Numbered from the stretch's first letter, positions 14,849-39,900 are shown. The stretch: DNA of 64,000 nt from Candidatus Aminicenantes bacterium (GCA_035403085.1 DAONEM010000008.1:3956-67955); one strand, 5' to 3'. Notes: generated by a model from the letters alone, not told the origin. Made by a program: numbers and translations.

Positions 14849-16024
14849 TCAGATAACCCCCAACTCCTTGCCCGTCTGGGTGAAGAGATCCAACGCAAAG
14901 TCCAGGTCTTTCTGGGAGTGGACGGCGGAGATCATGACACGGATCCGGGCCTTCCCTTTGGCGACGGTGGGAAAACCAATGGCTTGGGCGAAGATTCCTT
15001 TATCGAAGAGAGTCTTAGAGAACTTCTGGGCCAGAGAGGCTTCGCCAAGCATGACTGGGGTGATGGGGGTCTGTGAGTGGCCGATATCGAAGCCAACCTT
15101 CTTCATCCCCTCTTTGAAATACCGGGAGTTATCCCAAAGCTTCTTGACGAGATCGTCGGATTCGCTTAGATAATCGATGGCGGCGATGGTGGCGAGAACA
15201 TCGGCAGGGGTGACCGCCGAAGAGAAGAGGAAGGGACGGGCCTTCTGACGGAGGTAATCGGTCAGAACCGTGCTTCCTGATACGAAGCCTCCAACGACGC
15301 CGAAGGCCTTGGAAACGGTACCGACTTCGACGTCCACCTTTCCGTGAAGATGGAAGTGGTCGACGATTCCCCTTCCGCTTTCACCGAGGACTCCCTCTCC
15401 GTGCGCGTCGTCGACCATCAGGAGGGCGTCGTAGCGGGCGGCCAGCTCGGCCAATTCGGGCAAGGGGGCGATGTCTCCGTCCATGGAGAAAACGCCGTCG
15501 GTGATGATCAGGCGGCGACGACCCTCTTCCTTCTTCAGCTGCTCTTCGAGGTGGTTGGGGTCGCTGTGTTTGAAAATGACCCGCCGCGCCTTGGTGAGAC
15601 GGCATCCGTCGATGATGGAGGCATGGTTCAGCTCGTCGGTGAAGAGCACGTCTTCCGCGGAGGGGACGAGGGTGGGGATGGCAGCCAGGTTCGAGCAGAA
15701 GCCCGACTGGAAGGAGATCGTGGATTCCGATCTCTTGAAGGCGGCCATTTTTTTCTCCATTTCCAGGTGAATCTCCATGGTTCCGGCGATGGAACGGACC
15801 GCCGCCGGGCCCACTCCATACTTCTCGATTCCTTGGATGGCTCGCTTTTTCAGCTCAGGGTGGTCGGCGAATCCAAGGTAGTTGTTGACGCACATGTTCA
15901 GAACTTTCTTGCCGTTGACGATGGTCCAGCTGTTCTGGGCCGAGCCGATGGTCCGGATGGTGTTGAACAGACCGTCGTTCTTGAGAGCTTCTATCTCTTC
16001 TGTCAGAAAAGAGTATTTACTCAT
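14849..16024 (-). CDS. kbl: glycine C-acetyltransferase (2-amino-3-ketobutyrate CoA ligase)
   Basis: It is an alpha-oxoamine synthase family member with the PLP-Lys motif GTVSKAF. Start is at ATG 16024, preceded by AAGGAGGA. It is paired with tdh upstream. Confidence 0.9.
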
Positions 16025-16055
16025 TCTTGTATCCTCCTTAATTTTTTCGGTAAGG

Positions 16056-17096
16056 TCAGGAGAGAATGACCTTGCCGGCTTTCCCTTCTTCCATGAGCAG
16101 GAGTCCCTTTTCGATCTCCTCCATGGGGAAGTGGTGGGTGATGACGGGGGCAAGGTCGATCTTTCCGGTTTGGAGAAGACCGTCCATCCGGTACCAGGTG
16201 TCAAACATCTTGCGACCGTTGATCCCCTTGATGGTGATTCCCTTGAAGATGATCGCCTCGTTGAAATCGAGGGTCACATCGTTGTTGTAGATACCGAGAA
16301 GGACGAGGTTGCCGGCCTTCTTGATGACCTTCAGCCCATCCTTGAGGGCCGGTTGGGCGCCGGACATCTCGAGGATGTTGTCGACTCCCTCTCCACCGGT
16401 GAGGTCCATCACCTTCTCGACAAGATTCTCTTTGGCGGGGTTGATCAAGACATCGGCTCCCATCTTCCCGGCCATCTCACGACGGTAGTCGTTGATCTCC
16501 GAGACGAAGACCTTCGAGGCTCCGGCGGCTTTGGCGATTCCGGCCGCCATGGCTCCGATGGGCCCGGCTCCTGTGATGAGGACGCTTTTCGTGGGGATGT
16601 CACCTTCGAAAACCGTATGGACGGCGTTTCCGAAGGGGTCGTAGATGGCGAAGTACTCTTCGGGGATTCCGGGCTTAACCTTCCAAAGGTTGAGGGCGGG
16701 AACGACGACGTAGTCGGCGAAGGCCCCCGGCCCATCGACTCCGAGTATGACAACGTGTTCGCAAAGGTGGGCTTTTCCGGTTCGGCACATGGCGCACTGG
16801 TTACAGACAACATGCATCTCCGCTGTGACTAAATCGCCAACCTTGTAGGTATGAACGTTTCGGCCGGCTTCCACGATCTCTCCGTAGAATTCATGGCCCA
16901 GAATCACCGGCGTCTTGATTCGGTTCTGGGACCAGGCGTTCCACTGATAAATATGGAGATCGGTTCCACAGATGGCTCTCTTGTGGACCTTGATTAAGAC
17001 TTCATCGTCGTTCTTAATAGTTGGAACAGGGGCTTCTGTGACGGTTATGCCCCTCTCTTTGCTGGACTTTATGACGGCTCTCATTGTTTTGGCCAT
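16056..17096 (-). CDS. tdh: L-threonine 3-dehydrogenase
   Basis: It is a zinc-dependent medium-chain dehydrogenase with [10 protein letters not shown], Cys-rich structural zinc site [15 protein letters not shown] and NAD-binding GAGPIGAMA. It sits in the tdh-kbl gene order. Confidence 0.93.
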
Positions 17097-26016: not shown

Positions 26017-29000
26017 ATGAAGAAGCGGATGGTCTTGGTGGCGGCGATCGTTTTCGTTGTTGTTATGGGAGTTGTGGCCACTCTTCTCTGGAGGGGGAGA
26101 GGGGCCTCTTCCAGGGTTCTGACCCCTCAAGTGGAGGGGGAGCTGATCTCCTTCCAGGGGGAGGGAAAGGAGGGACTCTCCATCCGCTTAGCCGCTTCAG
26201 GCGATGAAGCTACCCGTCGGTCGGTGCTCTACTTCGATTTTGGAAAAGACCTCAACCCCGAGGCCGCCAAGGGGCAGTGGATCATCAAGGATCTGCCGGT
26301 GAAGATCGACCCCCCGATTCAGGGGGAGTTTCTCTGGGAAAGCCCTTCCCGACTGGCCTTCCATCCCGAGGAGGATTGGCGCCCGGCGACTCTCTACAAG
26401 CTCGTGCTCCGCTCTCTCAAGACTCCCGCCGGGGTCGTCTCGGCGGAAGAGCCCTTCTTCTTCTCCACTCCGGAGTTTCAGATTCAGGAGGCCCGGGTTG
26501 TCTCCTCCTCTCTCGCCAACCGGAGCGCCGTGGTCCGCCTCTTCTTCACCTACCCCGTCACCCGGGATTCCGTGGAAAAGAGCCTGAGCTTCGAGGATGC
26601 GGAGACGGGAATGGCCCTCCCCTATACCCTTCAAGGGGGGGAGAGCGACAGGGAGGTGCTCGCCGAGCTCTCCTCCTTGCCGGAGCATGTGATGAGGAAA
26701 CGGTCCGCCCTCTTGGTGAAGGTCGCCCCAACCCTAGGGGCCAAGGAGGGGGGAGTCACCTTGAAGGAGGCCTTCAGCCGTCTTCTGAGCCTCCAGGAGG
26801 CGGAAGCCTTCAAGTTCGTCAAGCACGAGTTTTTGGAGGGAAGGGAGGGGTTCACCCTGGTCCTGCGGTTTTCTTCCCAGCTCTCCTCCGGAGATCCTTC
26901 CCAGTACGTCTCCCTGGCTCCGGACATTCGACCCTCGGTCCGTCGCTCCGGCGAGACCCTCCTCATCAGCGGGCCCTTTCGTTCCGGGGAGAGCTACAAG
27001 ATCACCCTTAAGCCGGGGCTCCTCTCCACCGACGGCAAGGAGCTGAAGGAGGGGACCACCTGGGAGGCCAAGGTCCCCGACTTTACCCCCTCTCTCCGGT
27101 TTCTTCAGAAGGGGCGTTACATCAACCGAAGCGGCTCTCCCTCTGTGAGGGTCGAGACCCTGAACGTCGAGAAGGCTAAGGTCATCGTCCGCCGGATCTA
27201 CCCCAACAACCTCGCCTTCTGGTACGGGAAGTACTACAAGAATCAGTGGCGTTACGACCGACAGGCCGACAACTACATCTCTTCGGTCATCTACGAGAAG
27301 GAGATCCGGATCCGGGCAGGGAAGAACCAACGGACCTTGACCAGGATGGGCCTGGAGGAACTGGTCGGGAAGAAGATGAAGGGAATCTTCGAGATCAAGA
27401 TCTTCGCCCAGGGAAACGAGTACGATGAGAGTCTGAGCGATATTCTCTGGTTGAACTTCACAGACCTTGGCCTCGTCTACAAGAAGTCCCGGAACGCCCT
27501 TACCCTTTGGGCCCTGGACCTGGCCACCCTTCGACCCCAGTCGGGAGTCAAGGTCGCCCTGGTCACCCTGAACAACCAGACTCCCGCCTCCGGCCAGACC
27601 GGATCCGACGGCTCCTTCACCTTCACGAACCTGAAGGATTTGGGGAAGGTCGGGGAGCTTCTTCTCGTTCAGGCCGAGAGGGGAGACGACTTAACCTACC
27701 TGGATGCCGACTTCGCACGGATCGAGACATCGGATTTCGATACCGGCGGAGATCCTTGTCCCGAGGGGGAGAGTTATCAGGCCTACCTCTACGGTGACAG
27801 AGACCTTTACCGTCCCGACGACACAGCCCACCTGGTGGCGGTGGTTCGTGACAAGTGGCTCAAGCCTCTGGCCGACAACATGCCTCTGACCCTGAAGGTC
27901 TACCGCCCCGACGGTCGCCTGAAAGGGGAGTACCCTGTCCACGGGGACGGACAGGGGACGGCGGAGTGGACCCTCACCTTCTACCCCTACGAGAAGACCG
28001 GTTCCTACAGGGCCAGGCTCTACCTCGGGAAGACCCCTGTGGGCGAGACGACTCTGAAGGTCGAAGAGTTCCTTCCCGAAAGAATCCGCGTGGACGCGAC
28101 TCTCGACAAGAGGGAGTACGGCGTCGGCGAAGACTCCAAGACCAAGGTGGGAGCCGACTATCTCTTCGGAGCCCCCGTCGCGGGTGGACGGTTCCGTCAG
28201 GAGGTGTTCCTCCTCTCGGCTCCGACCCTCTTTCCAGGGTTCTCCCGCTACCGTTTCGGAACCGAGATGGAAAAGCCTGAACAGATCAAACTCTTTGAAC
28301 AGGAAGGCACCCTCGACGAGAAGGGGCGGGGTGAGACGCGTTTCGTCCTCCCCTCCGGGGATTACGCCGGGAAGATGAACCTCAACGTCTACACGGAGGT
28401 CTTCGAAGGCGACAGCGGCAGGAGCGTGCGGCGGAAAGCGGAGGCCCTCTTCTCTCCCTACACCGAATATATCGGCCTGGAGGAGCCCATCGGCTACCTC
28501 TCCGAAGGGAAGAGGAGCGATATCAGAGGCGTCGTCCTGGACTCCCGGGGAAGCAGGAGGAACGGCGAGAGGCCCCTGCGCTACGCCCTCTTCCGGAGGC
28601 ACTACAGCTGGGTCTCCTATTACGATAACCAGAGCTGGAGCTACCAGTACAAGAGGGTCTTCTACGAAGAGATCGTCGACGAAGGCTCTTTGGTCAGCAG
28701 GAACGGGGATTTCCTCTACACCTTTGTCCCCGGTTGGGGAAGCTACCGTCTGAGGGTCTCAGACCCGACCGGAGGGGCCAAGAGCGACCTCCTTCTCTCG
28801 ACGTACTGGTGGGAGAGCGACGGGCAGGAGCAGAGAAACCTTCCTCCCGAAAGGCTCTCCCTGGTGTTGGACAAACCCAGAGCCAAGGTGGGGGAGAGCG
28901 TCAAGGTGGGATTCCGGGCTCCCTTCACGGGCAAGGCCCTCCTGACGGTGGAGGCGGACACCCTCCTCTCTTCCCAATGGGTGGACGTGAAACGGGGGGA

Positions 29001-31467
29001 GAACACCCTGGAATTGAAGGTTCAGGAGGGGATGTACCAACCCACGCTCTACCTCTCCCTCCTCCTGATCAAGAGCACCGGACCCGAGGATCCCTACCCC
29101 TCCCGCGCCTTCGGGACTCAGCCTCTCGCGGTGGAGCCCCATAAGAACAAAGTGGCTCTCTCCTTGGAGGTTCCCCAGCAGATCAAACCCGGAACGAAGC
29201 TGGCGGTGGCCCTCAAGTCTCCGGGTCTCTCTTCGGCTCAAGTGACCTTGGCGGCTGTGGACGAGGGGATTCTCCAGATCACCGGTTTCCCCTCCCCCTC
29301 CCCTCTGGACTTCTTCTTCCGGAAACGAAGGCTCGAGACCGACACCTTCGACATGTTCGGTATGCTTCTGCCGGACATTCCCAAAGGGAAGGGGAGGCGC
29401 AGCGGAGCCGGCTACGCCGAAAAGGCGGAAGGGAGGGTGACGCCGGTCGTGAAGAGGGTCAAGCCCGTGGCTCTCTGGTCCGGGCGGGTCAGACTCCAAG
29501 GGGGGGGCGCGCGGGTGGAGTTTTCCCTCCCCGAGTACCAGGGTAAGCTGAGGATAATGGCCGTCGCCGTTGCGGGGGAACGCTTCGGTCAGGCCGAGGG
29601 GTTTGTCACCGTTCGGGACGAAGTGACTCTGGAGTCTTCGGCTCCCAGGTTCCTTCTTGAGGGAGACCGCTTCGACCTTCCGGTGACCCTCTTCAACAAT
29701 ACCGACAAGGCGAAGGTCCTGAAGGTCGGCGCCGAGACCAGAAACATCTCCCTCTTGGGTGGAGGCGGGAAAGAGGTGACGGTTCCCGGGAAGGGGAACG
29801 TCCGGGTTACCCTCTCGCTACAGGCCGGTGCCGCATCTCCGGAGGGGGCGCACCTCAAGGTTTACGCGGTGGGCGGCAACATCAAGAGCTCTCAGACTCT
29901 GGACTTCCCCGTGGACGATCCGGCCCCTCTCGTGAAGGAACGGGAGATCATCAAGATCGAACCGGGTTCCCGCACCCTCTCCTGGAGCGGTGAGGGGTGG
30001 AAGGGAAAGGGCCCCCGGGTGACTCTCGGCCTCTCCCCCTTCGGCTTCATCCGGGAGATGAGCTTCGTCAAGAACCTTCTGGAGTACCCCTACGGTTGTC
30101 TTGAACAGACGACCTCCGCCTCCTTCCCCCTCCTCTACCTGAAAGAGATTCTCCAGATTACGGCACCGGAGGCCCTCAAGAAGGCAACCCTCCCCCAGCT
30201 TGTCCAGAAGGGGATCGAGAGGGTACTTTCGATGCAGACCGTGTCCGGAGGGTTCGCCTTCTGGCCCGGAGAGACCTACGAAAACCCCTGGGGAAGTTGT
30301 TACGCCCTCCACTTCCTGCTGGAGGCCTCGGAGGCTGGGTACAATGTTCCCGAGTACACCGTGGAGAACGCTCTTCGCTATCTGCAGGAGACGCTCCCCT
30401 ACAAGAAGGGGGAAGGATCTATCACCTCCCGGTTCGATCGGGGCGCCTACGCCATCTACCTGCTCAGCCGGAAGAAGAAAGTCGATGGGAGCACGATCCT
30501 CTCCTACCAGCAACGTTTTGAACCCCTCTTTTCGACCGAGGGGAGAGCCTTCATGGCGGCGGCTCTCTTCCGATCCGGTGACTTCCAGAGAGGGCGCGAG
30601 CTGATGAGAAGGGTCGAAGGGGCGGAGGGAAAGCCCAACGGGGAGAGTTTCTTCACCCCCCTTCGCCGTGACTCCCTGAGGCTCTTCTTGACCGAGGAGA
30701 TGGGCATGCCCGTGGACCTCTCCCTCCTCCAAAGGGTGGCCGGTGAGATCGTCAGCCAGGGGGAGGGTTTCTACACGACCCAGGAGATGGCCTGGGGGTT
30801 GTTGGCCTTGGGAAAGAGGCTCCGCAAAGAGGGGGCCTCCACGGAGTTGAAGGCGGATCTGAAAACCGCCGCCGGTCGGCTTCTCAAGAGTGTCTCCGGC
30901 CCCGGAGGCTCTCACGTGGTCTCCCCCGGGGAAACATCGGTGGAGGTGGTGAACAAGGGAGGCTCCCCCTTCACCCTCCTCTTGCTCAAGGAGGGACGGC
31001 GCTCGGGGGGAGAGGAGAAAGAAACCGAGCGGGGAGTCGCCGTGGAGAGGAGCTACTACACGATCGACGGGAGACCTCTGCTGACGGGTTCCGGCGAGCT
31101 CAGGGTTCGTCAGGGGTCGCTGGTGGTGGTGAAGCTCTCCGTACGCAGCACCGCCGGGGTTCCCTTCCGCCAAGTGGCTTTGGACGATCGGATCCCTGCA
31201 GGCTTCGAAATCGAGAACCCCAGGTTGGGCAAGGAGCACCCCCTCCCCTGGATAGGAGCGCCCACGCTGGAACCCCGTTTCATGGACATTCGTGACGACA
31301 GGCTCTCCCTCTTCTTCGACCTGGAGAAGAAAGAACTCTTCTTCTACTACGTTATCAGGGCCGTGAACCGGGGACGTTTCCGCCTGCCTCCCGCCAGGTG
31401 CGAGGTCATGTACGAACCGGAGAACTCCTCCCAGAGAGGAGGAGGCTGGGCGGAAGTGGAAGGTTGA
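26017..31467 (+). CDS. bacterial alpha-2-macroglobulin family protein with thioester motif
   Basis: It is 1816 aa. The thioester motif is CLEQ in YPYGCLEQTTSA (nt 30097-30108). The architecture is MG-domain-like, and the N-terminal hydrophobic helix MKKRMVLVAAIVFVVVMGVVATLLW has no lipobox Cys. Confidence 0.9.
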   Translation: MKKRMVLVAAIVFVVVMGVVATLLWRGRGASSRVLTPQVEGELISFQGEGKEGLSIRLAASGDEATRRSVLYFDFGKDLNPEAAKGQWIIKDLPVKIDPPIQGEFLWESPSRLAFHPEEDWRPATLYKLVLRSLKTPAGVVSAEEPFFFSTPEFQIQEARVVSSSLANRSAVVRLFFTYPVTRDSVEKSLSFEDAETGMALPYTLQGGESDREVLAELSSLPEHVMRKRSALLVKVAPTLGAKEGGVTLKEAFSRLLSLQEAEAFKFVKHEFLEGREGFTLVLRFSSQLSSGDPSQYVSLAPDIRPSVRRSGETLLISGPFRSGESYKITLKPGLLSTDGKELKEGTTWEAKVPDFTPSLRFLQKGRYINRSGSPSVRVETLNVEKAKVIVRRIYPNNLAFWYGKYYKNQWRYDRQADNYISSVIYEKEIRIRAGKNQRTLTRMGLEELVGKKMKGIFEIKIFAQGNEYDESLSDILWLNFTDLGLVYKKSRNALTLWALDLATLRPQSGVKVALVTLNNQTPASGQTGSDGSFTFTNLKDLGKVGELLLVQAERGDDLTYLDADFARIETSDFDTGGDPCPEGESYQAYLYGDRDLYRPDDTAHLVAVVRDKWLKPLADNMPLTLKVYRPDGRLKGEYPVHGDGQGTAEWTLTFYPYEKTGSYRARLYLGKTPVGETTLKVEEFLPERIRVDATLDKREYGVGEDSKTKVGADYLFGAPVAGGRFRQEVFLLSAPTLFPGFSRYRFGTEMEKPEQIKLFEQEGTLDEKGRGETRFVLPSGDYAGKMNLNVYTEVFEGDSGRSVRRKAEALFSPYTEYIGLEEPIGYLSEGKRSDIRGVVLDSRGSRRNGERPLRYALFRRHYSWVSYYDNQSWSYQYKRVFYEEIVDEGSLVSRNGDFLYTFVPGWGSYRLRVSDPTGGAKSDLLLSTYWWESDGQEQRNLPPERLSLVLDKPRAKVGESVKVGFRAPFTGKALLTVEADTLLSSQWVDVKRGENTLELKVQEGMYQPTLYLSLLLIKSTGPEDPYPSRAFGTQPLAVEPHKNKVALSLEVPQQIKPGTKLAVALKSPGLSSAQVTLAAVDEGILQITGFPSPSPLDFFFRKRRLETDTFDMFGMLLPDIPKGKGRRSGAGYAEKAEGRVTPVVKRVKPVALWSGRVRLQGGGARVEFSLPEYQGKLRIMAVAVAGERFGQAEGFVTVRDEVTLESSAPRFLLEGDRFDLPVTLFNNTDKAKVLKVGAETRNISLLGGGGKEVTVPGKGNVRVTLSLQAGAASPEGAHLKVYAVGGNIKSSQTLDFPVDDPAPLVKEREIIKIEPGSRTLSWSGEGWKGKGPRVTLGLSPFGFIREMSFVKNLLEYPYGCLEQTTSASFPLLYLKEILQITAPEALKKATLPQLVQKGIERVLSMQTVSGGFAFWPGETYENPWGSCYALHFLLEASEAGYNVPEYTVENALRYLQETLPYKKGEGSITSRFDRGAYAIYLLSRKKKVDGSTILSYQQRFEPLFSTEGRAFMAAALFRSGDFQRGRELMRRVEGAEGKPNGESFFTPLRRDSLRLFLTEEMGMPVDLSLLQRVAGEIVSQGEGFYTTQEMAWGLLALGKRLRKEGASTELKADLKTAAGRLLKSVSGPGGSHVVSPGETSVEVVNKGGSPFTLLLLKEGRRSGGEEKETERGVAVERSYYTIDGRPLLTGSGELRVRQGSLVVVKLSVRSTAGVPFRQVALDDRIPAGFEIENPRLGKEHPLPWIGAPTLEPRFMDIRDDRLSLFFDLEKKELFFYYVIRAVNRGRFRLPPARCEVMYEPENSSQRGGGWAEVEG

Positions 31468-31632: not shown

Positions 31633-33132
31633 TTACTTCTTCCCCCCGAAGAGGGAGCCCAGGATGCTCCGGATAATGGTTCTTCCCATCTGAGAGCTTG
31701 CGGAACGGAGGGCGCTCTTGGCGACAGCCTCAATCATGGAATCTCCCCTCCTGGCAGGAGCGGCCGCCTTCTCCTGTTTGGCCTGAGCCGCCGCTTCCTT
31801 CGCCTTGGCCGCCTCCGCCTGTTCCTTGGCGGCGTTCTCGGCGGAGATGGCGATGCGCTTGTTGAGAAGTTCGTAGGCGGATTCCCGGTCGGTGACCTGG
31901 GAGTAGAGGGAGGCCAAGGGACTCATCCGGCTGATTCTCACCCGCTCTTCCGGAGGGATGGGACCGATCTGGGAGCGAGGCGGGAGGACCCAGGCCCTCT
32001 CCACGGGAATGGGCGTTCCCTTCGGATCGAGAAGGGAGATCAGGGCTTCCCCGACCTCCAACTCCGTGAGGGCCTTCTCGGCGTCCACGGCGGGGTTCTG
32101 GCGGAAGGTCTCCGCGGCGGCCCGGACTGCTTTCTGATCCTTGGGGGTGAAGGCTCTCAGGGCGTGCATGATCCGGTTCCCCAACTGACCGAGAATCACC
32201 TCCGGGATGTCCGCGGGGTTCTGGGTGATGAAGTAGACTCCAACGCCTTTGGAGCGGATCAAACGGACGACGAGCTCCACTTTTTCCAGGAGAACCGTGG
32301 GGGCGTCCCTGAAGAGGAGGTGAGCCTCATCGAAGCAGAGGATCAGCCGGGGTTTCTCGAGATCTCCAACCTCCGGGAGGTTCTCGTAGAGCTCTGAGAG
32401 AAGCCAGAGAAGGAAGGTGGCGTAAAGCCGCGGTCTCTGGATAAGCTCGTCTGCGGCCAGAACGTTGATTCTGCCGTACCCTCTCTCATCGTTCCCCATG
32501 AGGTCGGCGATACGGAGGACGGGTTCGCCGAAGAGAGCCTCTCCGTCTTGCTCTTCCAGTGTCAGAAGGGCCCTCTGAATAGAGGAGATGGAGACCGAGG
32601 AGACCAGGCCGTACTTCGTGGAGATCGCCTTCACGTTCTCCTGGGCGAACTGGAGGACCGCCCTAAGGTCCTTGAGGTCGAGGATGAGGAGGCCCTCGTC
32701 ATCGGCCATCTTGAAGAGAATCGAGAGGACTCCGCTCTGGATGTCGTTCAGATCGAAGAGGCGGCTGAGAAGGAGGGGCCCCATGTCGGAGACCGTCGTC
32801 CTCAGAGGGAGACCCGTCTTGGCGAAGATGTCCCAGAAGAGAAGGGGGTACCCTTCGAAGGGGTGGTCCGTCACCTTCAACAGGTTGAGCCGGGAGGCGA
32901 TCTTCGGCGTCGCCGTCCCTGGAACAGCCAGTCCCGAGAGATCTCCCTTGATGTCGGGCAGGAAGACCGGGACTCCCAAACGGCTGAAGTTCTCGGCGAG
33001 CCCCTGAAGGGTGACCGTCTTCCCGGTCCCCGTGGCTCCGGTGATCAGGCCGTGGCGGTTTCCCATCTTGGGATGGAAGAGAATCGGATTTTCGTTCTGG
33101 GCGATGAGGAAGGGGGAGACAGGTTGGTTCAT
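31633..33132 (-). CDS. DUF853/YjgR-family HerA-FtsK-like P-loop ATPase
   Basis: It has Walker A GATGTGKT, Walker B LILCFDEAH and a low-complexity Ala/Lys/Glu-rich C-terminal segment typical of YjgR-like proteins. ATG 33132 is preceded by GGAGG. The TTG at 33144 in the ORF track is less likely. Confidence 0.82.
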   Translation of the reverse strand: MNQPVSPFLIAQNENPILFHPKMGNRHGLITGATGTGKTVTLQGLAENFSRLGVPVFLPDIKGDLSGLAVPGTATPKIASRLNLLKVTDHPFEGYPLLFWDIFAKTGLPLRTTVSDMGPLLLSRLFDLNDIQSGVLSILFKMADDEGLLILDLKDLRAVLQFAQENVKAISTKYGLVSSVSISSIQRALLTLEEQDGEALFGEPVLRIADLMGNDERGYGRINVLAADELIQRPRLYATFLLWLLSELYENLPEVGDLEKPRLILCFDEAHLLFRDAPTVLLEKVELVVRLIRSKGVGVYFITQNPADIPEVILGQLGNRIMHALRAFTPKDQKAVRAAAETFRQNPAVDAEKALTELEVGEALISLLDPKGTPIPVERAWVLPPRSQIGPIPPEERVRISRMSPLASLYSQVTDRESAYELLNKRIAISAENAAKEQAEAAKAKEAAAQAKQEKAAAPARRGDSMIEAVAKSALRSASSQMGRTIIRSILGSLFGGKK

Positions 33133-33159
33133 AGTGACCTCCAAGGGGGTTCTCTTGTT

Positions 33160-33188: not shown

Positions 33189-33195
33189 GAGAGAA

Positions 33196-33223
33196 AGAGC
33201 CTGCCAGTCTCCGGGCAGGCTCT
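33196..33223 (-). terminator. intrinsic-terminator-like hairpin after the radical SAM gene
   Basis: A 10-bp perfect stem AGAGCCTGCC/GGCAGGCTCT has an 8-nt loop. On the minus strand it begins 6 nt after the stop and is followed by TTCTCTCTT. Confidence 0.5.
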
Positions 33224-33228
33224 CTTCT

Positions 33229-34236
33229 TCAGGAGCCCTCTTCGGTCTTTTTGCTGAGGGCGCGACGGACCCTGGCGGGAATCTCCCCCCAGACATAGCT
33301 CAAGGGGGAAGCCGTGTAGAGGGAGTGCTGGATGGCGCAGGCGATCCCGCACCCGTTTTGGCAGGGCTTCCGCTTGTTCCATTGCCAAAGGTCTTTCAGT
33401 CCGATCCGGTCGAAGGGGATCTCTGTCCTTAGTACCGAACAGGGCCAGAAGAGACCCGACCCGGAGACGAAGAAGATCTTATAGCCGGAGACGCAGCTCC
33501 ATTCAGGTTCGTGTCCTTGTAAGCGGCTTCGGTAGTGGTTGAGTACCGCCGTTGTTCCGTGGACCTTGCACCCTCTCCTCTTGAGTTCAAGCTGAAGTTC
33601 GATCAGCTCCAGAGTCTTTAGCCTCTCGCCTTCGGGGACCCTGAAGGCGCCCGCATCGTCGGCGTGGATGGGCCGGAGCTCCGTCGGGAAGCCCAAGGCC
33701 AGACCCTGCTTTAAGACATCGCCGATCTGGTCCAGGGTGTCCGCGCAGATCACCCCGGAGAGGTGGGTCTTGATGGGGCTCCCCCTCAGCAGCTTCAACG
33801 CCGGCATCTGGAGTTTCAGGGCCTTCTTCGTGACATCCGAGGGGGTGATCCGGTCTGTGGAGACCTGGAGGGCGTCGAGCCCGGCCTCTTCGATCCCCTT
33901 CAGAAGCTTGGGGTTCAGGAGGAGGGCGTTTGTGGACATGCTCACAGTGAGCCCCTTCCCCTTCGCGTAGGCGACCACTTCGACGATGTCCGGGTGTAGC
34001 AGGGGCTCCCCTCCGGCGAGGGCGACCTTAGTGACGCCCAGGGCGGAGATCTTGTCGATCCGCTGCTTCAGGTCGTCGAAAGAGGGGTGAGGCACGGAGT
34101 TGTCGTTCTCGCCGCAGTAGCTGCAGGAGAGGTTGCAACGGTCTGTAACGTAGAGTCCGGCGTGCATCGGACGTTTATCGTAGCCACGGGCCAGGGCGGC
34201 GAGCCAAGGGATCTCGTGGTGGCGTGAACCCCTCAT
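33229..34236 (-). CDS. radical SAM protein (MoaA/PqqE-like core with C-terminal Cys cluster)
   Basis: It has CNLSCSYC (CxxxCxxC) near the N-terminus and GGEPLL. C-terminal cysteines (WPCS...KPCQNGCGIAC) suggest an auxiliary-cluster or SPASM/twitch-like region. Start is at ATG 34236, overlapping the upstream stop in an ATGA. The longer ORF-track N-terminus is Pro/Arg-rich read-through. Confidence 0.85.
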   Translation of the reverse strand: MRGSRHHEIPWLAALARGYDKRPMHAGLYVTDRCNLSCSYCGENDNSVPHPSFDDLKQRIDKISALGVTKVALAGGEPLLHPDIVEVVAYAKGKGLTVSMSTNALLLNPKLLKGIEEAGLDALQVSTDRITPSDVTKKALKLQMPALKLLRGSPIKTHLSGVICADTLDQIGDVLKQGLALGFPTELRPIHADDAGAFRVPEGERLKTLELIELQLELKRRGCKVHGTTAVLNHYRSRLQGHEPEWSCVSGYKIFFVSGSGLFWPCSVLRTEIPFDRIGLKDLWQWNKRKPCQNGCGIACAIQHSLYTASPLSYVWGEIPARVRRALSKKTEEGS

Positions 34237-35522
34237 GGGGCAACCTTTCGGAGCCTGGTGAAGATGCTGAACATGATTCCTCCTCCTTTGATCATCAGGG
34301 AAAGCAGGGCGTAGAGGGCTATGCAGGCGAAGCCTAAGAGGGGCTTGCCCACGAGGACGAAGGGGGCGAAGGTCCACAGGTAGGTGTTGCGTCGCCCAGC
34401 GAAGACCCGTAAGGCCCGGGCGAAGGGTCCGCTGTCGTCGAACTGAAGGTGAAACACTCTCCGGTAAGCGGCTGTGAGGACCATGTCGAGGACGTTGGCG
34501 GCGAGGATGGTTCCCAGGGAGATCAGGGGTAGGGTGACTCTGCCCCCTGCCGAGAGATGCCAGGCCAGTGCCAGGTACCATCCGTTCTCGTAGACCTTGT
34601 CGAGGTGGTGTTCCCATTCCCCTAGGGGGGAGAAGTGGAGTTTGACACGGGCCTGTTTTCCGTCCAGTCCGTCGAGGACTCCGACGATGAGGGCCAGGAC
34701 CAGGCCGGAAGCAAGGAACCCTGCGGCGAAGAGGCCGAGGGCGGCGAAGGCCGCGAGGTTGTTGAGAACCGTGAGCTGGTTGGGGGTGATCGACCACTCA
34801 CAGATTTGCGATATGAGCGCGTTCTCGATGGGGCGGTGGATGTACCAGGCCGGCCAATCGAGGACAAGCTTTTGGGAAGAGCTGATCAAAATGCTCTTTG
34901 CGGCGGGGTTGTCTTCCGGCCCCTTCACCGGGAAGAAGAGAAAGGGGACATGGGCGCGCATATCGGGTTTGTAGTTGGGGAGGGTCGAGAGGTCGAGAAG
35001 GAGATTCGGCTCGTCTCCCACGGCTTTGACAGCCTCTTGGGCGAGAGAGAGGGGGGAGGGGAGAGCGAATCCGGCGAGGCGGGAGAGGGAAATTCTTGCG
35101 ACTCCCGCAAAGAGGTAGGGACGTCCGGAAAGGGTGATCGACGGGAGGCCTGCCCGGGAAGGGACACACTCCTGAGGAATGAAGCAGAGACGTTCGCCCC
35201 CTTGGGAGAGGAGAGCCGGTAGCCGTGAGTCGACGAGGGCCGATCCGTCCAGAAGGAGAACCTGCGGGGTGCCGTCGGCGGGCAAGAGAGAGGGATCGAT
35301 TCTTCTCCCCTCGTCGAGAGGAGAGACCGTGAAGGGGATGTTGAACTTCTTCAGCTCCGAGAGGATTCCTTCGGGGACCTCCCCTTTGGGGCAGAGAACC
35401 GTTATTCCGGAGACACCCTCGTAGTAGAGGGTACGAAGGGAGCGCTCCAAGACGGTCACACCGGCGATTCTCACGAAACTCTCTGCAGAGGCCAGGACGA
35501 ACGCCCTCGTCGGAGTGGTCAT
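34233..35522 (-). CDS. fusion protein: degenerate nucleotidyltransferase-like N-domain + CDP-alcohol phosphotransferase-family membrane domain
   Basis: The C-terminal polytopic domain carries DGLDGKQAR (D-x2-DG-x2-AR, nt 34647-34673). The N-terminal roughly 200 aa resemble the NTP-transferase fold start (AFVLASAE..RIAGVTVLERSL) but lack the GxGxR loop. Start is at ATG 35522 (MTTPTRAF). Confidence 0.7.
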   Translation of the reverse strand: MTTPTRAFVLASAESFVRIAGVTVLERSLRTLYYEGVSGITVLCPKGEVPEGILSELKKFNIPFTVSPLDEGRRIDPSLLPADGTPQVLLLDGSALVDSRLPALLSQGGERLCFIPQECVPSRAGLPSITLSGRPYLFAGVARISLSRLAGFALPSPLSLAQEAVKAVGDEPNLLLDLSTLPNYKPDMRAHVPFLFFPVKGPEDNPAAKSILISSSQKLVLDWPAWYIHRPIENALISQICEWSITPNQLTVLNNLAAFAALGLFAAGFLASGLVLALIVGVLDGLDGKQARVKLHFSPLGEWEHHLDKVYENGWYLALAWHLSAGGRVTLPLISLGTILAANVLDMVLTAAYRRVFHLQFDDSGPFARALRVFAGRRNTYLWTFAPFVLVGKPLLGFACIALYALLSLMIKGGGIMFSIFTRLRKVAP

Positions 35523-37036
35523 AGGGACTCCTTTCTTCTGGGAGAAACCAGAGAGGTAAACTTCTGCAGGAGGGCCTTGTCCTCTGCGGCGGTGCCGAAG
35601 AGGTGGAGCAGGAGGATGTACCCTACCAGGAAAGCGGCCAGGGCCACCGCGTCGGAAACCCTGGGAGGAAGGGCCCAGACGAGCTCTTTCAAGAGGAAGG
35701 CGGCGGCACCGGAGAGGGCCGCGGCGAAGAGTGCCCGAAGGTGGTACCGGGTGAAGGGGTGCATCCGGTAGAAGAGGCGGACCATGACGAGCCTGAGAAG
35801 GTTCATCACGGTGTAGGCGGCCAGGGTCGCACAGGCGGCTCCGGTCATTCCGTAACGGGGGACCAGGAAGAGGCCGAGTCCGGCGGAAACGGCGATCCCG
35901 GCCACGGTGTTGAGCAGGTTGAAGGCGGGCCTCTCGATGAGGATGAAGAGCTCCGAGACCCCCAGGACTGTGTTGATAAGAACGGCTATGGTCAGGAGCG
36001 TGAGGGGAAGGGCTCCCGAAGAGAACCCCTTTCCAAAGACGGCCATGATGAGTTGGGACCCGAAGGTCGCCAAGCCCAGGAGGGCGAGGTCGATGATCAG
36101 GATCCAGCGGGTGACCGTCCTGAAGTGGGCGAGAAGCTCCTTGGATTCTGACCTGGCTTCGGCGGCCGCGATCACCGGGATGGTGATGGGGTCGAAACTC
36201 TGGCGGACCTTCTTGAAGGTGAAGGCGGCGTTCTGGGCGAGTCCGTAGACACCGACCGAGGCTGGCGCCGCGAAACGGCTCAGGAGGAGGAGGTCGATCC
36301 TCTGCAGGAAGAGGTTCAGAAGGTCGTAGACACCGATGAAGGCGGAAAACCGCGTGAACTCTCGACGGCCTTCCTTCGCCGCCAGAAGCCTGAAGACCCG
36401 ACGGGGCGAGTAGAGCCTGGTGAAGAGGATCCCCGCGGCGGTTGTCCCCGCCGCGGTCGCCAGAAGAAAGGCCCAGGCGATACCTTTGATCCCCGGGAGA
36501 AAGGGGCGGAGGAGAAGGGCGAGGAGGAAGAGAGCCGCCGGTTCGATGCCGCTCTTGACGGCGATCTCGTGCTTCATGACCCGGACGGCCCGGGCCCCGT
36601 GGACCAGGACGGCCGTGAGGGTCCAGAAGAGGATTCCCGGAGCCATCACCCTGAGGGGAAGAACCAGGTCTGGACGGTGGAGAAGGGAACAAAGGAGGGG
36701 AACCGAGAGCTCCAAGGCTCCGACGAGGAGAAGGGAGCAGAACGCCGTCACTGCGAGGGCTTGGGCGATGGAACGGTAAGCCCCCTCCTCGTCGCCGGTG
36801 GCGCGGAAGCGGGCGACAAAGGTCAAAACGCCCCTATCGAACCCTAAGAGGCCGAGTTTTGAGGCGATGTCGAGGCTGGATTGACAGAGAACGAAGACGC
36901 CGGTGATCGCTGCGCCGTAGGCCCTGGCGAGCCAGACATAGAAGAGAACGTTGACACTTTTGATGAGAATTCCTGCGAAGTTTGTGAGCGCACCCCGTGC
37001 GATGTCGCGTGTATCCGCCTTGAGGTTGTTGGTCAA
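35519..37036 (-). CDS. MOP-superfamily (Wzx/MurJ-like) polysaccharide/lipid-linked oligosaccharide flippase
   Basis: It is a polytopic protein of about 500 aa with the composition and repeat of polysaccharide biosynthesis/flippase proteins. The proposed TTG start at 37036 is preceded by GGAGG. The start is uncertain. The ORF-track N-terminus overlaps the lpxC promoter region. Confidence 0.7.
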   Translation of the reverse strand: MTNNLKADTRDIARGALTNFAGILIKSVNVLFYVWLARAYGAAITGVFVLCQSSLDIASKLGLLGFDRGVLTFVARFRATGDEEGAYRSIAQALAVTAFCSLLLVGALELSVPLLCSLLHRPDLVLPLRVMAPGILFWTLTAVLVHGARAVRVMKHEIAVKSGIEPAALFLLALLLRPFLPGIKGIAWAFLLATAAGTTAAGILFTRLYSPRRVFRLLAAKEGRREFTRFSAFIGVYDLLNLFLQRIDLLLLSRFAAPASVGVYGLAQNAAFTFKKVRQSFDPITIPVIAAAEARSESKELLAHFRTVTRWILIIDLALLGLATFGSQLIMAVFGKGFSSGALPLTLLTIAVLINTVLGVSELFILIERPAFNLLNTVAGIAVSAGLGLFLVPRYGMTGAACATLAAYTVMNLLRLVMVRLFYRMHPFTRYHLRALFAAALSGAAAFLLKELVWALPPRVSDAVALAAFLVGYILLLHLFGTAAEDKALLQKFTSLVSPRRKESL

Positions 37037-37165
37037 AAAACCTCCGAAGCCGATGTGCGACGGCTGCCTTGAAAGGGGCAAGCAGAAGAGAGCCCTCTCT
37101 CCGGGGCGATTAGAAAGAAAATATCGGGTCGTCTCATTATGGACAATTTCGTGGCGCGGATCTTC

Positions 37166-37194
37166 ATTAAAGCCGACTAGAGAGAAAAAGTCAA
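37166..37194 (-). promoter_or_regulatory. sigma70-type promoter of the flippase operon (TTGACT-17-TTTAAT)
   Basis: On the minus strand, TTGACT is at 37194-37189 and TTTAAT at 37171-37166. Its -35 lies 4 nt from the -35 of the divergent lpxC promoter. Confidence 0.5.
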
Positions 37195-37198
37195 GGAG

Positions 37199-37228
37199 TT
37201 GACCCCTTCCCGGCAGGGAAGGTATGAT
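37199..37228 (+). promoter_or_regulatory. sigma70-type promoter of lpxC (TTGACC-18-TATGAT), -10 ends 5 nt before the ATG
   Basis: TTGACC is at 37199-37204 and TATGAT at 37223-37228, followed by CTGAT and ATG 37234. There is no Shine-Dalgarno sequence. Confidence 0.55.
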
Positions 37229-37233
37229 CTGAT

Positions 37234-38091
37234 ATGATGAAGACAAGGGAGTTAAAAAGGACCCTGGAGTTTGAAGGAATCGGGGTCCATTCGGGGAAGG
37301 GAGTCCGTTGTCGGCTTCTTCCCGACACATCCTTCCGGGGCGTCCGCTTCCTTCTTCCCGGAGGCCCACCCCGCCTGGCCGATCCTTTCACGGCCTCGAC
37401 GCCCAACTCTACGGTCTTGGAGTGGAAGGGGGAGAGAGTGGCTACGGTGGAGCACCTTCTGGCGGTTCTCCACCTCCTTCGGTACCGGAGGGTGATGGTC
37501 GAAGTTCAGGGGGGAGAACTCCCTATCCTTGACGGGAGCGCCCTCCCCTACTTCGAGGCCCTGTCGGATCCCGCCGTTTTCTCCCCCGGGGAAGAGGAGG
37601 ACTCAGGTCCTTTTCCTTCGCCCCTACGGGTTCAAGAGGGAGAGGGATGGGCCGAATACTCACCGGGCGGTCCCTTTCGCGTGGAATACGGGATCCGCTT
37701 CCCCCACCCCGCTATCGGAGAGCTCACTTGGCGTGGAGAGATCAACGAGGAGACCTTCGGAAGGGAGATCGCCCCGGCCAGAACCTTCGGCTTCCTGAAG
37801 CAGGCGCAAGAGCTGAGAAAGAGGGGGCTGGCCTTGGGGGCCTCCCTGGAGAACACCATCGTCCTGGACGATCAGGGGCCTCTCTCCCCTCTTCGCTTCC
37901 CTGACGAATACGTGCGGCACAAGGTTTTAGACCTTCTGGGAGACCTCTTCTACCTCGGCGGCGGGCTTACGGGAGTGTGGCGGGTGTTTCGGGGGGGACA
38001 CTCGCTTCATCTGGCGTTGGTGAGAGGACTTCTGGCTCTTCCTTCGGGGCCTCTTGCGTCAGGGGCTCCTCCCTCTCAGGGGGGGGCTTAA
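37234..38091 (+). CDS. lpxC: UDP-3-O-acyl-N-acetylglucosamine deacetylase
   Basis: It has the N-terminal LKRTLEFEGIGVHSG, TVEHLLA, HKVLDLLGDL and FRGGHSL motifs of LpxC, at 285 aa. Confidence 0.9.
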   Translation: MMKTRELKRTLEFEGIGVHSGKGVRCRLLPDTSFRGVRFLLPGGPPRLADPFTASTPNSTVLEWKGERVATVEHLLAVLHLLRYRRVMVEVQGGELPILDGSALPYFEALSDPAVFSPGEEEDSGPFPSPLRVQEGEGWAEYSPGGPFRVEYGIRFPHPAIGELTWRGEINEETFGREIAPARTFGFLKQAQELRKRGLALGASLENTIVLDDQGPLSPLRFPDEYVRHKVLDLLGDLFYLGGGLTGVWRVFRGGHSLHLALVRGLLALPSGPLASGAPPSQGGA

Positions 38092-38785
38092 GCCCTCGGT
38101 GCCTGAGGATGGAGAGGATCCTGCGACGCTTGAAGGCGACGAACCCCCTCTGAGCGCGGGGAGAGTACTTCAAGGGGTTGGGAAGGATCGCGGCCAGAGA
38201 GGCGGCCTGTTCGAGGGAGAGAGAGGAAGCGGAGACTCCGAAGTGACGCCTCGCCGCAGCCTCGGCCCCGAAGATTCCCTCACCCCACTCCACGGAGTTG
38301 AGGTAAAGCTCGAGAATCCTCTTCTTCGTGAGCGTCTTCTCCATCTTCAGGGCGATGGGGACCTCCGCCGCCTTCCGGAAGAGACTCTTCTTCGGCGAGA
38401 GGTAGAGGTTCTTCGCCAGCTGCTGGGTCAGCGTGGAGGCTCCTCTAACCATACGGCCCCTCTTCAGGTCCTTTTCGAGGGAGAGGCGGATCTCGACCCA
38501 ATCCAGGCCTTCGTGGCTGAAAAACCGGTCGTCTTCGCTGGCTAGAACGGCCCTGATGAGGGAGGGGGAGATCCTGGAGATGCTCTTCCACCTCCGGTCG
38601 ACACGGTAGGGCTTTCCCTCCTTGAGCCTTTGGCTCTTACGGTACTCGATGAAGGCCGTGGTCTTCGGGTTCTCCTTGGCCAAGCGGGCCGTGTCGGGGA
38701 GGAGGACAAACCAGAAGAGAAGGGCTCCCAGGACGAGGAGGAGAAGGCAGAGGAAGAACTTGGGTAAGAGGCGGCGTTTTTTCAT
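37967..38785 (-). CDS. mtgA: monofunctional biosynthetic peptidoglycan transglycosylase
   Basis: It has the GT51 motifs ASEDDRFFSHEGLDW and GASTLTQQLAKN, plus an N-terminal TM anchor. A Pro/Glu-rich C-terminal tail overlaps the lpxC 3' end. Confidence 0.9.
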   Translation of the reverse strand: MKKRRLLPKFFLCLLLLVLGALLFWFVLLPDTARLAKENPKTTAFIEYRKSQRLKEGKPYRVDRRWKSISRISPSLIRAVLASEDDRFFSHEGLDWVEIRLSLEKDLKRGRMVRGASTLTQQLAKNLYLSPKKSLFRKAAEVPIALKMEKTLTKKRILELYLNSVEWGEGIFGAEAAARRHFGVSASSLSLEQAASLAAILPNPLKYSPRAQRGFVAFKRRRILSILRHRGLKPPPEREEPLTQEAPKEEPEVLSPTPDEASVPPETPATLP

Positions 38786-39900
38786 GGTTGTTCCTTTCTT
38801 TCAGGGGGTAAAGGTCTCTTTCTGAAGAGCTTCTCCCTCTCCAGAAGGGGAAAATCTATGAGAAACTGAGGGGTGAAGACTCCCCGGTCCATCCCCTCCT
38901 TGATCTCCCGGTAGCTCCAGAACCTTCCCTCCGTGATCTCCTGGGGATCCGTTTTCAAGGGGAGGCCATCGTAGAGGGCGGTATAGGAGATGACCCATTC
39001 GCTTTCTCTCTCTTCCCTTCGGATGTTAAGGGCGAAGGGGGCGAAAGAGGGCGGTTCCCAACCCAACTCTTCGAGGCACTCCCTCTTGAGAGCCTCTTCG
39101 GGCTTCTCCCCGAAGAGGATATGGCCGCTTACCGAGGTTTCCCAGAGACCCGGCGCGGTCTCCTTGTTCGGGGAGCGTTTCTGCAGGTAGAGGTCTCCGT
39201 CTCGAGAGAAGAGGTGCAGTCTCACGACCGGGTGGAGAAGGGAGGGATCGCCATGGCAGAGGGAGCGGGGGGCCTTGCCGAGGAGACGTCCCTCGTCGTT
39301 GACGATGGGGAGTTGCTCTTCTCTCTCCAGGAGACGCCATCGTCTCGCGGCGATAATCCTCCGCCCCAGGAGGGTGGCCAGGGTCGCCCCCAGGAGGAGA
39401 AGGGGAAGAAGGGTTGTGGAGACGAAGGCCCAGACCCTTCTGGAGAGGAAGAGGGCGGCGTAGAGCGTGAGGAGGGAGTGGAGAAAGAAGAGGAAGAAGA
39501 GGGGGCGGGAGAGTCTCTTGAGGGAACCTTCGGGGAGCCAAGGCGCATACCTTTTCATGGACCCCGATAGGAGAGGCCAGGGGGTGTAGGCCTCCAGGAA
39601 GAGGAGCCCGGACATGATGAAGCCGAAAAGGGCTGGCTTGACAAGGAAAAAGCGGCTGTCCCGGAGGAAGAGTGAGAGAAGGCCCAAGAGCATGACCAGG
39701 AGAGTGTCCGCAAGGATCCAGAGATCGGTCTTCCTCTGCTTGATCCAGGTCCAGAGGAACTCCCCGCCCCCCGTGACAAGGGCCATGATGACGGCGGGGG
39801 TCTCCCCCCAAAGCTCCTCGACGAGGATGTAGGCGAGAAGGGGAAGAAGCGAGAGGAGAAGGAAGAGGTTCCAGGAGGTGTGCCTCTTCTCTCCTTCCAT
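38782..39900 (-). CDS. fusion: polytopic membrane domain (YciB/IspZ-like?) + IDI-like Nudix hydrolase domain
   Basis: The N-terminal roughly 190 aa contain 5-6 hydrophobic helices. The C-terminal part has the Nudix box GHILFGEKPEEALKRECLEELG within an IPP-isomerase-like context (PGLWETSVSGH). Its stop overlaps the mtgA ATG in an ATGA. Confidence 0.8.
   Translation of the reverse strand: MEGEKRHTSWNLFLLLSLLPLLAYILVEELWGETPAVIMALVTGGGEFLWTWIKQRKTDLWILADTLLVMLLGLLSLFLRDSRFFLVKPALFGFIMSGLLFLEAYTPWPLLSGSMKRYAPWLPEGSLKRLSRPLFFLFFLHSLLTLYAALFLSRRVWAFVSTTLLPLLLLGATLATLLGRRIIAARRWRLLEREEQLPIVNDEGRLLGKAPRSLCHGDPSLLHPVVRLHLFSRDGDLYLQKRSPNKETAPGLWETSVSGHILFGEKPEEALKRECLEELGWEPPSFAPFALNIRREERESEWVISYTALYDGLPLKTDPQEITEGRFWSYREIKEGMDRGVFTPQFLIDFPLLEREKLFRKRPLPPERKEQP

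Follow-up and report, generated by a model that had tools for sequence, protein, structure and literature searches.

CDP-alcohol phosphotransferases with six transmembrane (TM) helices take soluble acceptors such as inositol phosphate (Clarke et al., PMC4634129), whose phosphate is bound by paired arginines, and two of these enzymes, AF2299 and AfDIPPS, carry a cytidylyltransferase-like N-domain and process no lipids (PMC4634129). In the bacterial PIP synthase route (PgsA1, BT_1523) and in the proposed Bacteroides vulgatus-type CDP-inositol route (PMC9246714), a class I CDP-alcohol phosphotransferase puts the inositol-phosphate head group in place. The lipid-modifying radical S-adenosylmethionine (SAM) enzymes reviewed in 2026 are Tes, Mss, Gms, GrsA/B, Gmm, Cds, HpnH/J/P/R, Jaw5 and the ladderane enzymes, with Cds and HpnJ remodelling head groups into or around a cyclitol (PMC13459092). 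Here, we describe a three-gene locus in a 64,000-nt stretch of DNA from Candidatus Aminicenantes bacterium (GCA_035403085.1 DAONEM010000008.1:3956-67955; the whole stretch is hereafter the window). ORF calls and Pfam matches place three genes on the minus strand at 33229-37036, encoding in order a MOP/PST flippase, a CDP-alcohol phosphotransferase with a nucleotidyl-transferase (NT)-like N-domain (hereafter B) and a radical SAM enzyme. A preliminary description of the window, which had assigned these same three domains correctly, knew of no characterised pathway with this composition. This agrees with our data, as no equivalog cut-off was reached and the combination of a CDP-alcohol phosphotransferase carrying a dead NT domain, a radical SAM enzyme and a MOP flippase is described neither in NCBIfam nor in the 2026 review (PMC13459092) nor in the papers found by a full-text literature search. 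We conclude that the trio, which recurs in at least five phyla, is a real functional unit conserved across phyla and not a lipid A accessory, and we rated it as a variant of CDP-alcohol-phosphotransferase head-group pathways. With about an even chance of being right, we suggest that it represents the smallest version of a conserved module for making an inositol-phosphate-type envelope lipid, tailoring it by radical chemistry and flipping it.

The identity of B rests on its fold as well as on its sequence matches. The CDP-OH_P_transf match (PF01066) was weak but above threshold (24.6 bits, cut-off 22), and the N-terminal 200 aa had no Pfam match, the NT fold there being visible only in the structure model and the profile alignment. 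The AlphaFold (AF2) model built from 30 homologues (predicted local distance difference test, pLDDT, 90.9; predicted TM-score, pTM, 0.86) has an alpha/beta N-domain followed by six long TM helices, without a C-terminal extension after TM6, and reproduces the IPCT/DIPPS architecture of an NT fold joined to a six-TM phosphotransferase fold. Six helices with nothing added at the C-terminus are typical of the enzymes for soluble acceptors such as inositol phosphate (PMC4634129). Foldseek against the PDB returned 4MND first (E 2.4e-13, TM 0.61/0.64), followed by AF2299 and the PIP synthases, with sugar-phosphate nucleotidyl-transferases matching the N-domain. The B family profile gave the same candidates, scoring 56 bits over the full length of 4MND, 50 bits on the TM domain of AF2299 and ~22 bits on PIP synthases. 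Among NCBIfam models, B matched only three families, each of them using inositol phosphate as acceptor: IPCT/DIPPS, archaetidylinositol-phosphate synthase and PIP synthase. B is far below the equivalog cut-off of each; for IPCT/DIPPS (NF041135), where the cut-off is 580 bits, residues 198-410 aligned with a score of 47.5 bits. The analogy to IPCT/DIPPS drawn in the preliminary description was therefore well chosen, given that this system comes out on top in Foldseek, in the PDB profile search and in NCBIfam.

An alignment of the 30 homologues was used to define the conserved residues of B. The phosphotransferase signature D284xxD287G288xxA291R292-x8-G301 is exact and continues as G301xxE304xxxD308xxxE312, where E304, D308 and E312 are invariant and stand opposite three aspartates in DIPPS and AF2299. 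E304, three residues after G301 (G+3), takes the place of D3, D308 corresponds to D4 and E312 is an extra acidic residue. This D/E motif looks like a conservative variant, and activity is assumed. The GRRN arginines R377 and R378, in the TM4-TM5 region, are also invariant, as is R372 near TM5. The N-domain carries an 8-residue deletion relative to 4MND that falls exactly at the GxGTRL loop (AGLGTRLG), none of the 30 aligned homologues has this loop, and the GD aspartate of IPCT is unconserved in the B family and is a serine in the window protein. Because the loop is deleted and the aspartate is missing, the domain is, as judged from its sequence, catalytically inactive as a cytidylyltransferase, and we rejected an active IPCT domain in B. 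What had been called an NT-like domain is thus right as to fold, but the domain is predicted to be unable to make the CDP donor. G21, E26, R27, R30, D98 and R100 of the N-domain are (nearly) invariant, indicating that it is still under selection, and it may have a role in scaffolding or ligand binding.

These features allow B to be placed relative to the described enzymes. Like IPCT-DIPPS of Archaeoglobus fulgidus (4MND, NF041135), its best fold, profile and NCBIfam match, B has a cytosolic NT fold followed by a six-helix CDP-alcohol phosphotransferase and shares the third acidic residue one turn after D4. In contrast to that enzyme, which makes a soluble osmolyte, B lacks the elements of an active NT domain, has glutamate as D3, and its gene is coupled to those for a flippase and a radical SAM enzyme. 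AF2299 (4O6M/4O6N) is nearly as close, with TM-scores of 0.60-0.61 when B is the reference for normalisation and 0.73-0.77 when AF2299 is, and its N-domain sequence LGLTLRER aligns with G(I/V)(S/T)LLER of B. However, AF2299 is archaeal and binds CDP-glycerol (PMC4634129), and no radical SAM or flippase partner has been described for it. Unlike the PIP synthases, whose profiles gave 22-29 bits, B is a separate, longer paralogue that usually lies beside a short PIPS-like enzyme, and the PIP synthase and CDP-inositol routes contain neither a radical SAM enzyme nor a MOP flippase. The gene set of the PMC9246714 route (inositol-1-phosphate synthase (MIPS), NTP-transferase, CDP-alcohol phosphotransferase and HAD hydrolase) is also present in B-bearing clusters of Verrucomicrobiota and of L086, a locus among the closest relatives examined. 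Collectively, these comparisons suggest that B would function in the manner of AF2299 or of the DIPPS part of IPCT-DIPPS, yet belongs outside the IPCT/DIPPS family.

The radical SAM enzyme has the invariant CX3CX2C motif (C34/C38/C41) that defines the superfamily and five conserved auxiliary cysteines, arranged as C248-x17-C266 (C248-x12-G-x4-C266) and C292-x3-C296-x3-C300. It had no match to SPASM (PF13186), and its profile aligns to SkfB through residue 274; the protein probably belongs to the twitch/SPASM subgroup. It falls in no characterised family, and we refer to its clade, within which a distance tree places it, as rSAM2. NCBIfam matches stayed below the equivalog cut-offs of MoaA (76.5 bits, cut-off 284), viperin (60.6, 180), Tes (61.7, 450), PqqE (58.1, 381) and BlsE (TIGR04466; 42, 400), and the alignments cover only the core, approximately residues 24-137 (23-179 for PqqE, 24-174 for Tes). 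When the AF2 model (pLDDT 89.3) was compared with the PDB by Foldseek, the best match was the cytosylglucuronate decarboxylase BlsE (7VOB), a small radical SAM enzyme acting on a nucleoside sugar, over the full length (TM 0.68/0.69). BlsE differs in that it is only 19% identical and that the profile aligns just core residues 37-135. Further fold neighbours were SkfB, CteB, SuiB, PqqE, MoaA, anSME, DesII, GDGT-MAS, viperin and AbmM; BlsE, DesII, viperin, MoaA and AbmM act on sugars or nucleotides, and peptide maturases are also present. Many Arg, Lys and His residues are invariant, and hydropathy analysis revealed no hydrophobic segments, as expected for a soluble enzyme. None of the lipid radical SAM enzymes covered in PMC13459092 resembles this protein, and Cds and HpnJ, which act on the hexose head groups of archaeal tetraethers or of hopanoids, provide an analogy only.

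The flippase matched Polysacc_synt (PF01943; 44.7 bits, cut-off 28.2) and Polysacc_synt_3 (PF13440; 44.5 bits, cut-off 23) and has ~12 hydrophobic segments by hydropathy, in keeping with a polytopic PST-family protein of ~12-14 TM segments. It was far under the specific NCBIfam equivalog cut-offs (WzxC-type PRK10459, 34.6 bits against 273; TuaB, 32.4 against 580). Its most likely start is the TTG at 37036, given the GGAGG at 37045-37041 preceding it, the length of the homologues (504-507 aa) and an independent gene call that takes the same TTG in L089, a sister locus whose B is 89% identical.

The three genes are translationally coupled, as proposed in the preliminary description, with ATGA overlaps between the flippase stop and the B start (35522-35519) and between the B stop and the radical SAM start (34236-34233); GGAG lies 6 nt 5´ of the B start codon. 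The same 4-nt flippase-to-B overlap is found in L089, L001 and L087. Downstream, the arms AGAGCCTGCC and GGCAGGCTCT form a 10-bp G+C-rich stem with an 8-nt loop, followed on the minus strand by the T-rich tail TTCTCTCTT. This hairpin had been reported at 33196-33223 and is indeed present, though shifted by one base. The predicted RNA fold of the 71-nt region has an energy of -31.9 kcal/mol (z = -1.9), and the consensus terminator scan did not call the hairpin. The G+C content of the trio (0.61-0.63) equals that of the flanking genes, and we rejected a horizontal-transfer island for this reason.

Conservation of the trio was assessed across relatives of B, of which 314 proteins were scored in a first search and at least 403 GTDB species loci were confirmed by tblastn. 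Neighbourhoods were counted by tblastn with reference proteins on 80 of these loci, all from species other than that of the window. A related radical SAM gene was found near B in 45 of the 80 loci (within 500 bp in 42), a MOP flippase in 32 and both together in 23. Genes for an IPCT-like NTP_transf_3 protein (52/80), MIPS (22/80) and MMPL (10/80) also recurred, and the stand-alone NTP_transf_3 proteins scored 100-109 bits against the IPCT half of NF041135. When only the 48 long loci were considered, 38 had an IPCT-like gene or MIPS within 10 kb of B. B, radical SAM and flippase genes occur together in Myxococcota, a Deltaproteobacteria metagenome-assembled genome (MAG), Verrucomicrobiota, Acidobacteriota and Nitrospirota, and B with radical SAM also in Gammaproteobacteria. 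The possibility raised earlier, that the three genes might not be co-conserved in other genomes, is thereby set aside.

The gene order around B varies between groups. Myxococcota loci read (hypothetical)-flippase-B-MMPL-rSAM and the Deltaproteobacteria MAG (L003) reads rSAM-flippase-B. Aerophobetes loci have MIPS>IPCT>B, Chloroflexi loci IPCT>B, and Sphingomonadales loci short CDP-alcohol phosphotransferase<B>MIPS>IPCT. The large Verrucomicrobiota cluster contains OEP-MFP-FtsX-ABC, flippase, SDR, IPCT, rSAM1<B>rSAM2, GNAT, short CDP-alcohol phosphotransferase and MIPS. Further lipid and glycan genes of this cluster encode a fatty-acid hydroxylase, a Spt/Kbl/BioF-family alpha-oxoamine synthase, an SDR scoring 157 bits on the 3-ketodihydrosphingosine reductase model and GT-C, GT2 and GT4 glycosyltransferases. 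Among the closest relatives, L089 has the same arrangement as the window (mtgA-lpxC<>flippase-B-rSAM). L087 (flippase 71%, radical SAM 72% and B 57% identical to the window) reads OEP-MlaC-MMPL-rSAM-hypothetical-sulfatase-flippase-B-B'-short CDP-alcohol phosphotransferase, and L086 (radical SAM 64%) reads IPCT-MMPL-rSAM-flippase-B-short CDP-alcohol phosphotransferase-MIPS-IPCT-MIPS. A scan of metagenomes for closer relatives yielded nine loci and no new arrangement. In a distance tree, the B of the window groups with those of L089, L087, L090, L003 and Myxococcota, in a clade that is sister to the alphaproteobacterial MIPS-linked clade.

Several cluster types were noted in the course of these comparisons. 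A supercluster of ~17-20 kb in Chthoniobacterales/Udaeobacter (L083, L017-L082; for example L083 1-17965) has genes for MIPS and IPCT alongside those for two radical SAM paralogues and for two or three CDP-alcohol phosphotransferases, and adds a Spt-like alpha-oxoamine synthase, a 378-aa GNAT, a KdsR-like SDR, a fatty-acid hydroxylase, GT-C, GT2 and GT4 glycosyltransferases, a MacB-type exporter and two OEPs. From its gene content, it looks like a glycosylated inositol-phospho-sphingolipid pathway in very abundant soil bacteria. The compact alphaproteobacterial cluster (L025-L027, L037, L049, L051, L054, L074, L084), mostly from Sphingomonadales and sometimes with Wzi after IPCT, is present in cultured Sandarakinorhabdus and Novosphingobium strains. 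Myxococcota-type clusters have a ~355-aa protein with a weak PF17187 match directly upstream of the flippase or B (L001 5392-6465, L008, L010, L094-L097), which is absent from the window.

Working from the gene structure, folds, motif states and cross-phylum synteny, which were observed directly, we propose substrates, a lipid anchor and a radical SAM reaction as follows. B would act on the cytoplasmic side of the inner membrane and, as its homologues do, join a CDP-activated partner and an alcohol by a phosphodiester, the polar partner most likely being the phosphate of myo-inositol or of a closely related cyclitol or polyol. The NT domain would be only a scaffold and the CDP donor would come from another enzyme; in many relatives, a possible source is a separate IPCT-like enzyme that draws on the product of inositol-phosphate synthase. 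Tailoring of the cyclitol or polyol moiety would fall to the soluble twitch/SPASM-type radical SAM enzyme, whose substrate could be the CDP-linked or phosphorylated precursor, if it acts ahead of transfer, or the head group already bound to the lipid, if it acts later. For the latter case, calditol synthase and HpnJ, which act on other lipids, offer a possible precedent by analogy. Finally, the coupled MOP flippase would move the lipid-linked product to the outer leaflet, and in relatives MMPL/MlaC/OEP or MacB-type systems may carry it on to the outer membrane. Candidate lipid partners are diacylglycerol, ceramide or an existing inositol lipid. More tentatively, and at clearly below an even chance, the radical SAM enzyme could convert CDP-inositol or inositol phosphate to a modified cyclitol (oxidised, epimerised, deoxygenated or ring-contracted) that B installs on a lipid, giving new outer-membrane cyclitol-phospholipids or cyclitol-sphingolipids.

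A number of observations weigh against this proposal. Tblastn detected no MIPS, IPCT-like gene or second CDP-alcohol phosphotransferase in the 64-kb window, so that the inositol assignment here draws on relatives and on similarity. The genomic link to MIPS seen for IPCT/DIPPS is thus missing from the window and present in the 22 sampled loci and in L086; the preliminary statement that no inositol-phosphate synthase accompanies the trio is true of the window but not of the family. Within the B clade of the window, the Myxococcota members and L003 likewise have no MIPS or IPCT within 10 kb, and the B genes of Sphingomonadales are without an adjacent radical SAM gene. The 80-locus sample is also dominated by Verrucomicrobiota MAGs. 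As for B itself, glutamate at D3 comes with a one-residue shift from the class I signature, and the TM domain resembles those of AF2299 and AfDIPPS, enzymes of soluble substrates only (PMC4634129), which leaves room for a soluble product.

The best of the other explanations is that the flipped phospho-polyol lipid is a periplasmic donor for lipopolysaccharide, glycans or proteins, in the way that EptA, LtaS and OpgB transfer a phospho-alcohol from phosphatidylethanolamine or phosphatidylglycerol. MOP flippases usually move lipid-linked precursors, as do Wzx, MurJ and TacF, and not bulk phospholipids. The operon lies beside lpxC and mtgA in the window and in L089, and the 'sulfatase' between the radical SAM and flippase genes of L087 is an alkaline-phosphatase-superfamily protein with weak LtaS/YejM matches. 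However, there is no such transferase in or near the operon of the window, lpxC adjacency is missing in 80 of 80 GTDB loci, and the presence of MMPL, MlaC and MacB-type partners in relatives suggests that it is the lipid itself that is exported. We therefore regard a donor lipid as unlikely.

It is distinctly improbable that B makes an ordinary phospholipid head group and that the hydrocarbon chains are what the radical SAM enzyme alters, through C-C coupling, methylation or cyclisation in the manner of Tes, Mss and Grs. Aminicenantes are now placed within Acidobacteriota, a phylum known for unusual membrane-spanning lipids, and the radical SAM core has weak matches to Tes and GDGT-MAS. Chains are also the target of most known lipid radical SAM enzymes (PMC13459092). 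Yet the Tes and GDGT-MAS matches are to the core only, with TM-scores of 0.47-0.48 versus 0.68 for BlsE, the 335-aa protein has no hydrophobic segment, and its gene pairs with a head-group enzyme and not with fatty-acid or ether-lipid genes. The lipid-tail analogy of the preliminary description found no support in the fold comparison, in which the neighbours include sugar or nucleotide modifiers and peptide maturases.

Di-myo-inositol phosphate (DIP) is a solute of hyperthermophiles, and B could be imagined as a DIP-type synthase making a compatible solute that stays in the cytoplasm or is exported by the 'flippase'. Some loci have MIPS>IPCT>B only (L061), and AfDIPPS and AF2299, to which B is closest among characterised enzymes, act on soluble substrates alone (PMC4634129). 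We consider this very doubtful, as B is translationally coupled to a PST-family flippase and belongs to a family abundant in mesophilic soil bacteria. Its gene neighbours also include lipid-export genes (MMPL, MlaC, OEP and MacB-type) and, among Verrucomicrobiota, genes for sphingolipid synthesis and glycosyltransferases.

A radical SAM enzyme with no relation to its two neighbours, serving as an antiviral viperin-like enzyme or as a maturase of ribosomally synthesized and post-translationally modified peptides, can scarcely be credited: the fold and profile matches include SkfB, CteB, SuiB and PqqE and PADLOC pVip models match residues 28-132, but these pVip matches, like those to viperin, are confined to the generic core (on which ground anti-phage defence was rejected), neither the flippase nor B hit a PADLOC system, no precursor-peptide ORF was seen in the sequence read or in the ORF listing (minimum 80 aa, with no dedicated small-ORF search), and a related radical SAM gene recurs next to B in the sampled loci.

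An envelope-lipid module of the kind we favour would bear on a gap in lipid biochemistry. Inositol lipids are considered rare in bacteria, and enzymes for several reported bacterial inositol-phospho-sphingolipids are lacking. The B family is a concrete candidate for the missing steps, since it lies beside MIPS/IPCT in Sphingomonadales and inside sphingolipid-type clusters in Verrucomicrobiota. Novosphingobium acidiphilum has a phosphohexose sphingolipid though both known clusters are absent (PMC9246714), and the Sphingomonadales B cluster is a candidate for its synthesis; cultured carriers of B include Sandarakinorhabdus glacialis, Novosphingobium aquae and Novosphingobium sp. MW5. The reaction of the paired radical SAM enzyme would be a new one beside those of the few radical SAM enzymes that remodel lipid head groups, and, if the modified-cyclitol version is true, new cyclitol lipids would be found in Aminicenantes, Myxococcota and abundant soil Verrucomicrobiota (Udaeobacter, Chthoniobacterales).

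Table 1. Features of the trio and of the adjoining lpxC region, in window coordinates.
Feature	Coordinates	Strand	Basis or remark
Terminator-like hairpin	33195..33222	-	between radical SAM stop and next gene
Radical SAM enzyme, 335 aa	33229..34236	-	PF04055, 71.1 bits (cut-off 29.5)
Protein B, 429 aa: NT-like N-domain (~residues 1-200) and CDP-alcohol phosphotransferase	34233..35522	-	PF01066, model, alignment
MOP/PST-family flippase, 505 aa	35519..37036	-	Polysacc_synt, Polysacc_synt_3, hydropathy
Candidate operon promoter, TTGACT-17-TTTAAT	37166..37194	-	~130 nt upstream of flippase start
lpxC promoter-like site, TTGACC-18-TATGAT	37199..37228	+	sole site called by consensus scan
lpxC	37234-38091	+	domain match, 237.7 bits; divergent from trio

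The candidate promoters of the trio and of lpxC are divergent, and their -35 hexamers are 4 nt apart, exactly as first described. The consensus promoter scan, for which 0.3 sites were expected in shuffles, called the lpxC-side site only. The operon promoter is present where it had been proposed, but its TTTAAT does not have the key A at position 2; it was therefore not called by the scan, and we rate it as weak. The intergenic region of L089 is 94% identical to that of the window, with both operon-promoter hexamers unchanged, a different spacer and the lpxC-side hexamers also conserved. The divergent -35 hexamers form a perfect palindrome, GTCAA-ggag-TTGAC (37190-37203), which could equally be a candidate binding site for a dimeric regulator. 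On the lpxC side, the -10 element TATGAT ends 5 nt before the ATG, implying that the lpxC mRNA is leaderless or nearly so. On the operon side, the TTG start leaves a 5´ leader of ~130 nt, which had no Rfam match at E <= 1 and no unusual fold (z = 0.07), and a riboswitch or structured leader was rejected.

Co-regulation with lipid A synthesis had been suggested from this arrangement, together with a check of whether the trio is lpxC-adjacent across related genomes. Besides the window and L091, which is the window's own contig, we found lpxC beside the trio only in L089; neither the 80 GTDB loci nor the remaining metagenomic relatives that we examined have it at this place. The conserved linkage with lpx genes expected of a lipid A (Raetz) regulon is thus missing. 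As the link is limited to near-identical genomes, we rejected lipid A co-regulation as a general feature; judging from gene order, the lpxC link is genus-level only and the lpxC promoter appears to be a neighbour and not a conserved part of the module.

The remainder of the window has ordinary chromosomal content, and proteins sharing 90% clusters with those of the window carry the name Candidatus Aminicenantes bacterium. lpxC and mtgA (monofunctional transglycosylase) are convergent, and their ORFs overlap by 125 nt (37967-38091) within C-terminal tails of low complexity. The gene calls of L089 (686-1504 and 1380-2237) show this 125-nt overlap as well. Directly downstream of mtgA, with a 4-nt overlap, a minus-strand gene (38782-39900) encodes septation protein A (YciB/IspA, residues 15-170) fused to a C-terminal NUDIX hydrolase (residues 223-335). 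On the terminator side of the operon are a HerA-like ATPase (31633-33144, minus strand; HerA_C 700 bits), with weak PADLOC HerA and mad8 matches and no partner defence genes seen, and an 1816-aa protein (26017-31467, plus strand) that is alpha-2-macroglobulin-like by eye only. Farther away on the minus strand (14849-17096), an acyltransferase of the BioF/Kbl family (14849-16204) lies beside a Zn-dependent dehydrogenase. We rejected the acyltransferase as the sphingolipid gene Spt because it passes the BioF/Kbl cut-off (TIGR01825, 568.6 bits) and has the adjacent dehydrogenase, and the pair is most simply read as Kbl-Tdh threonine degradation rather than serine palmitoyltransferase.

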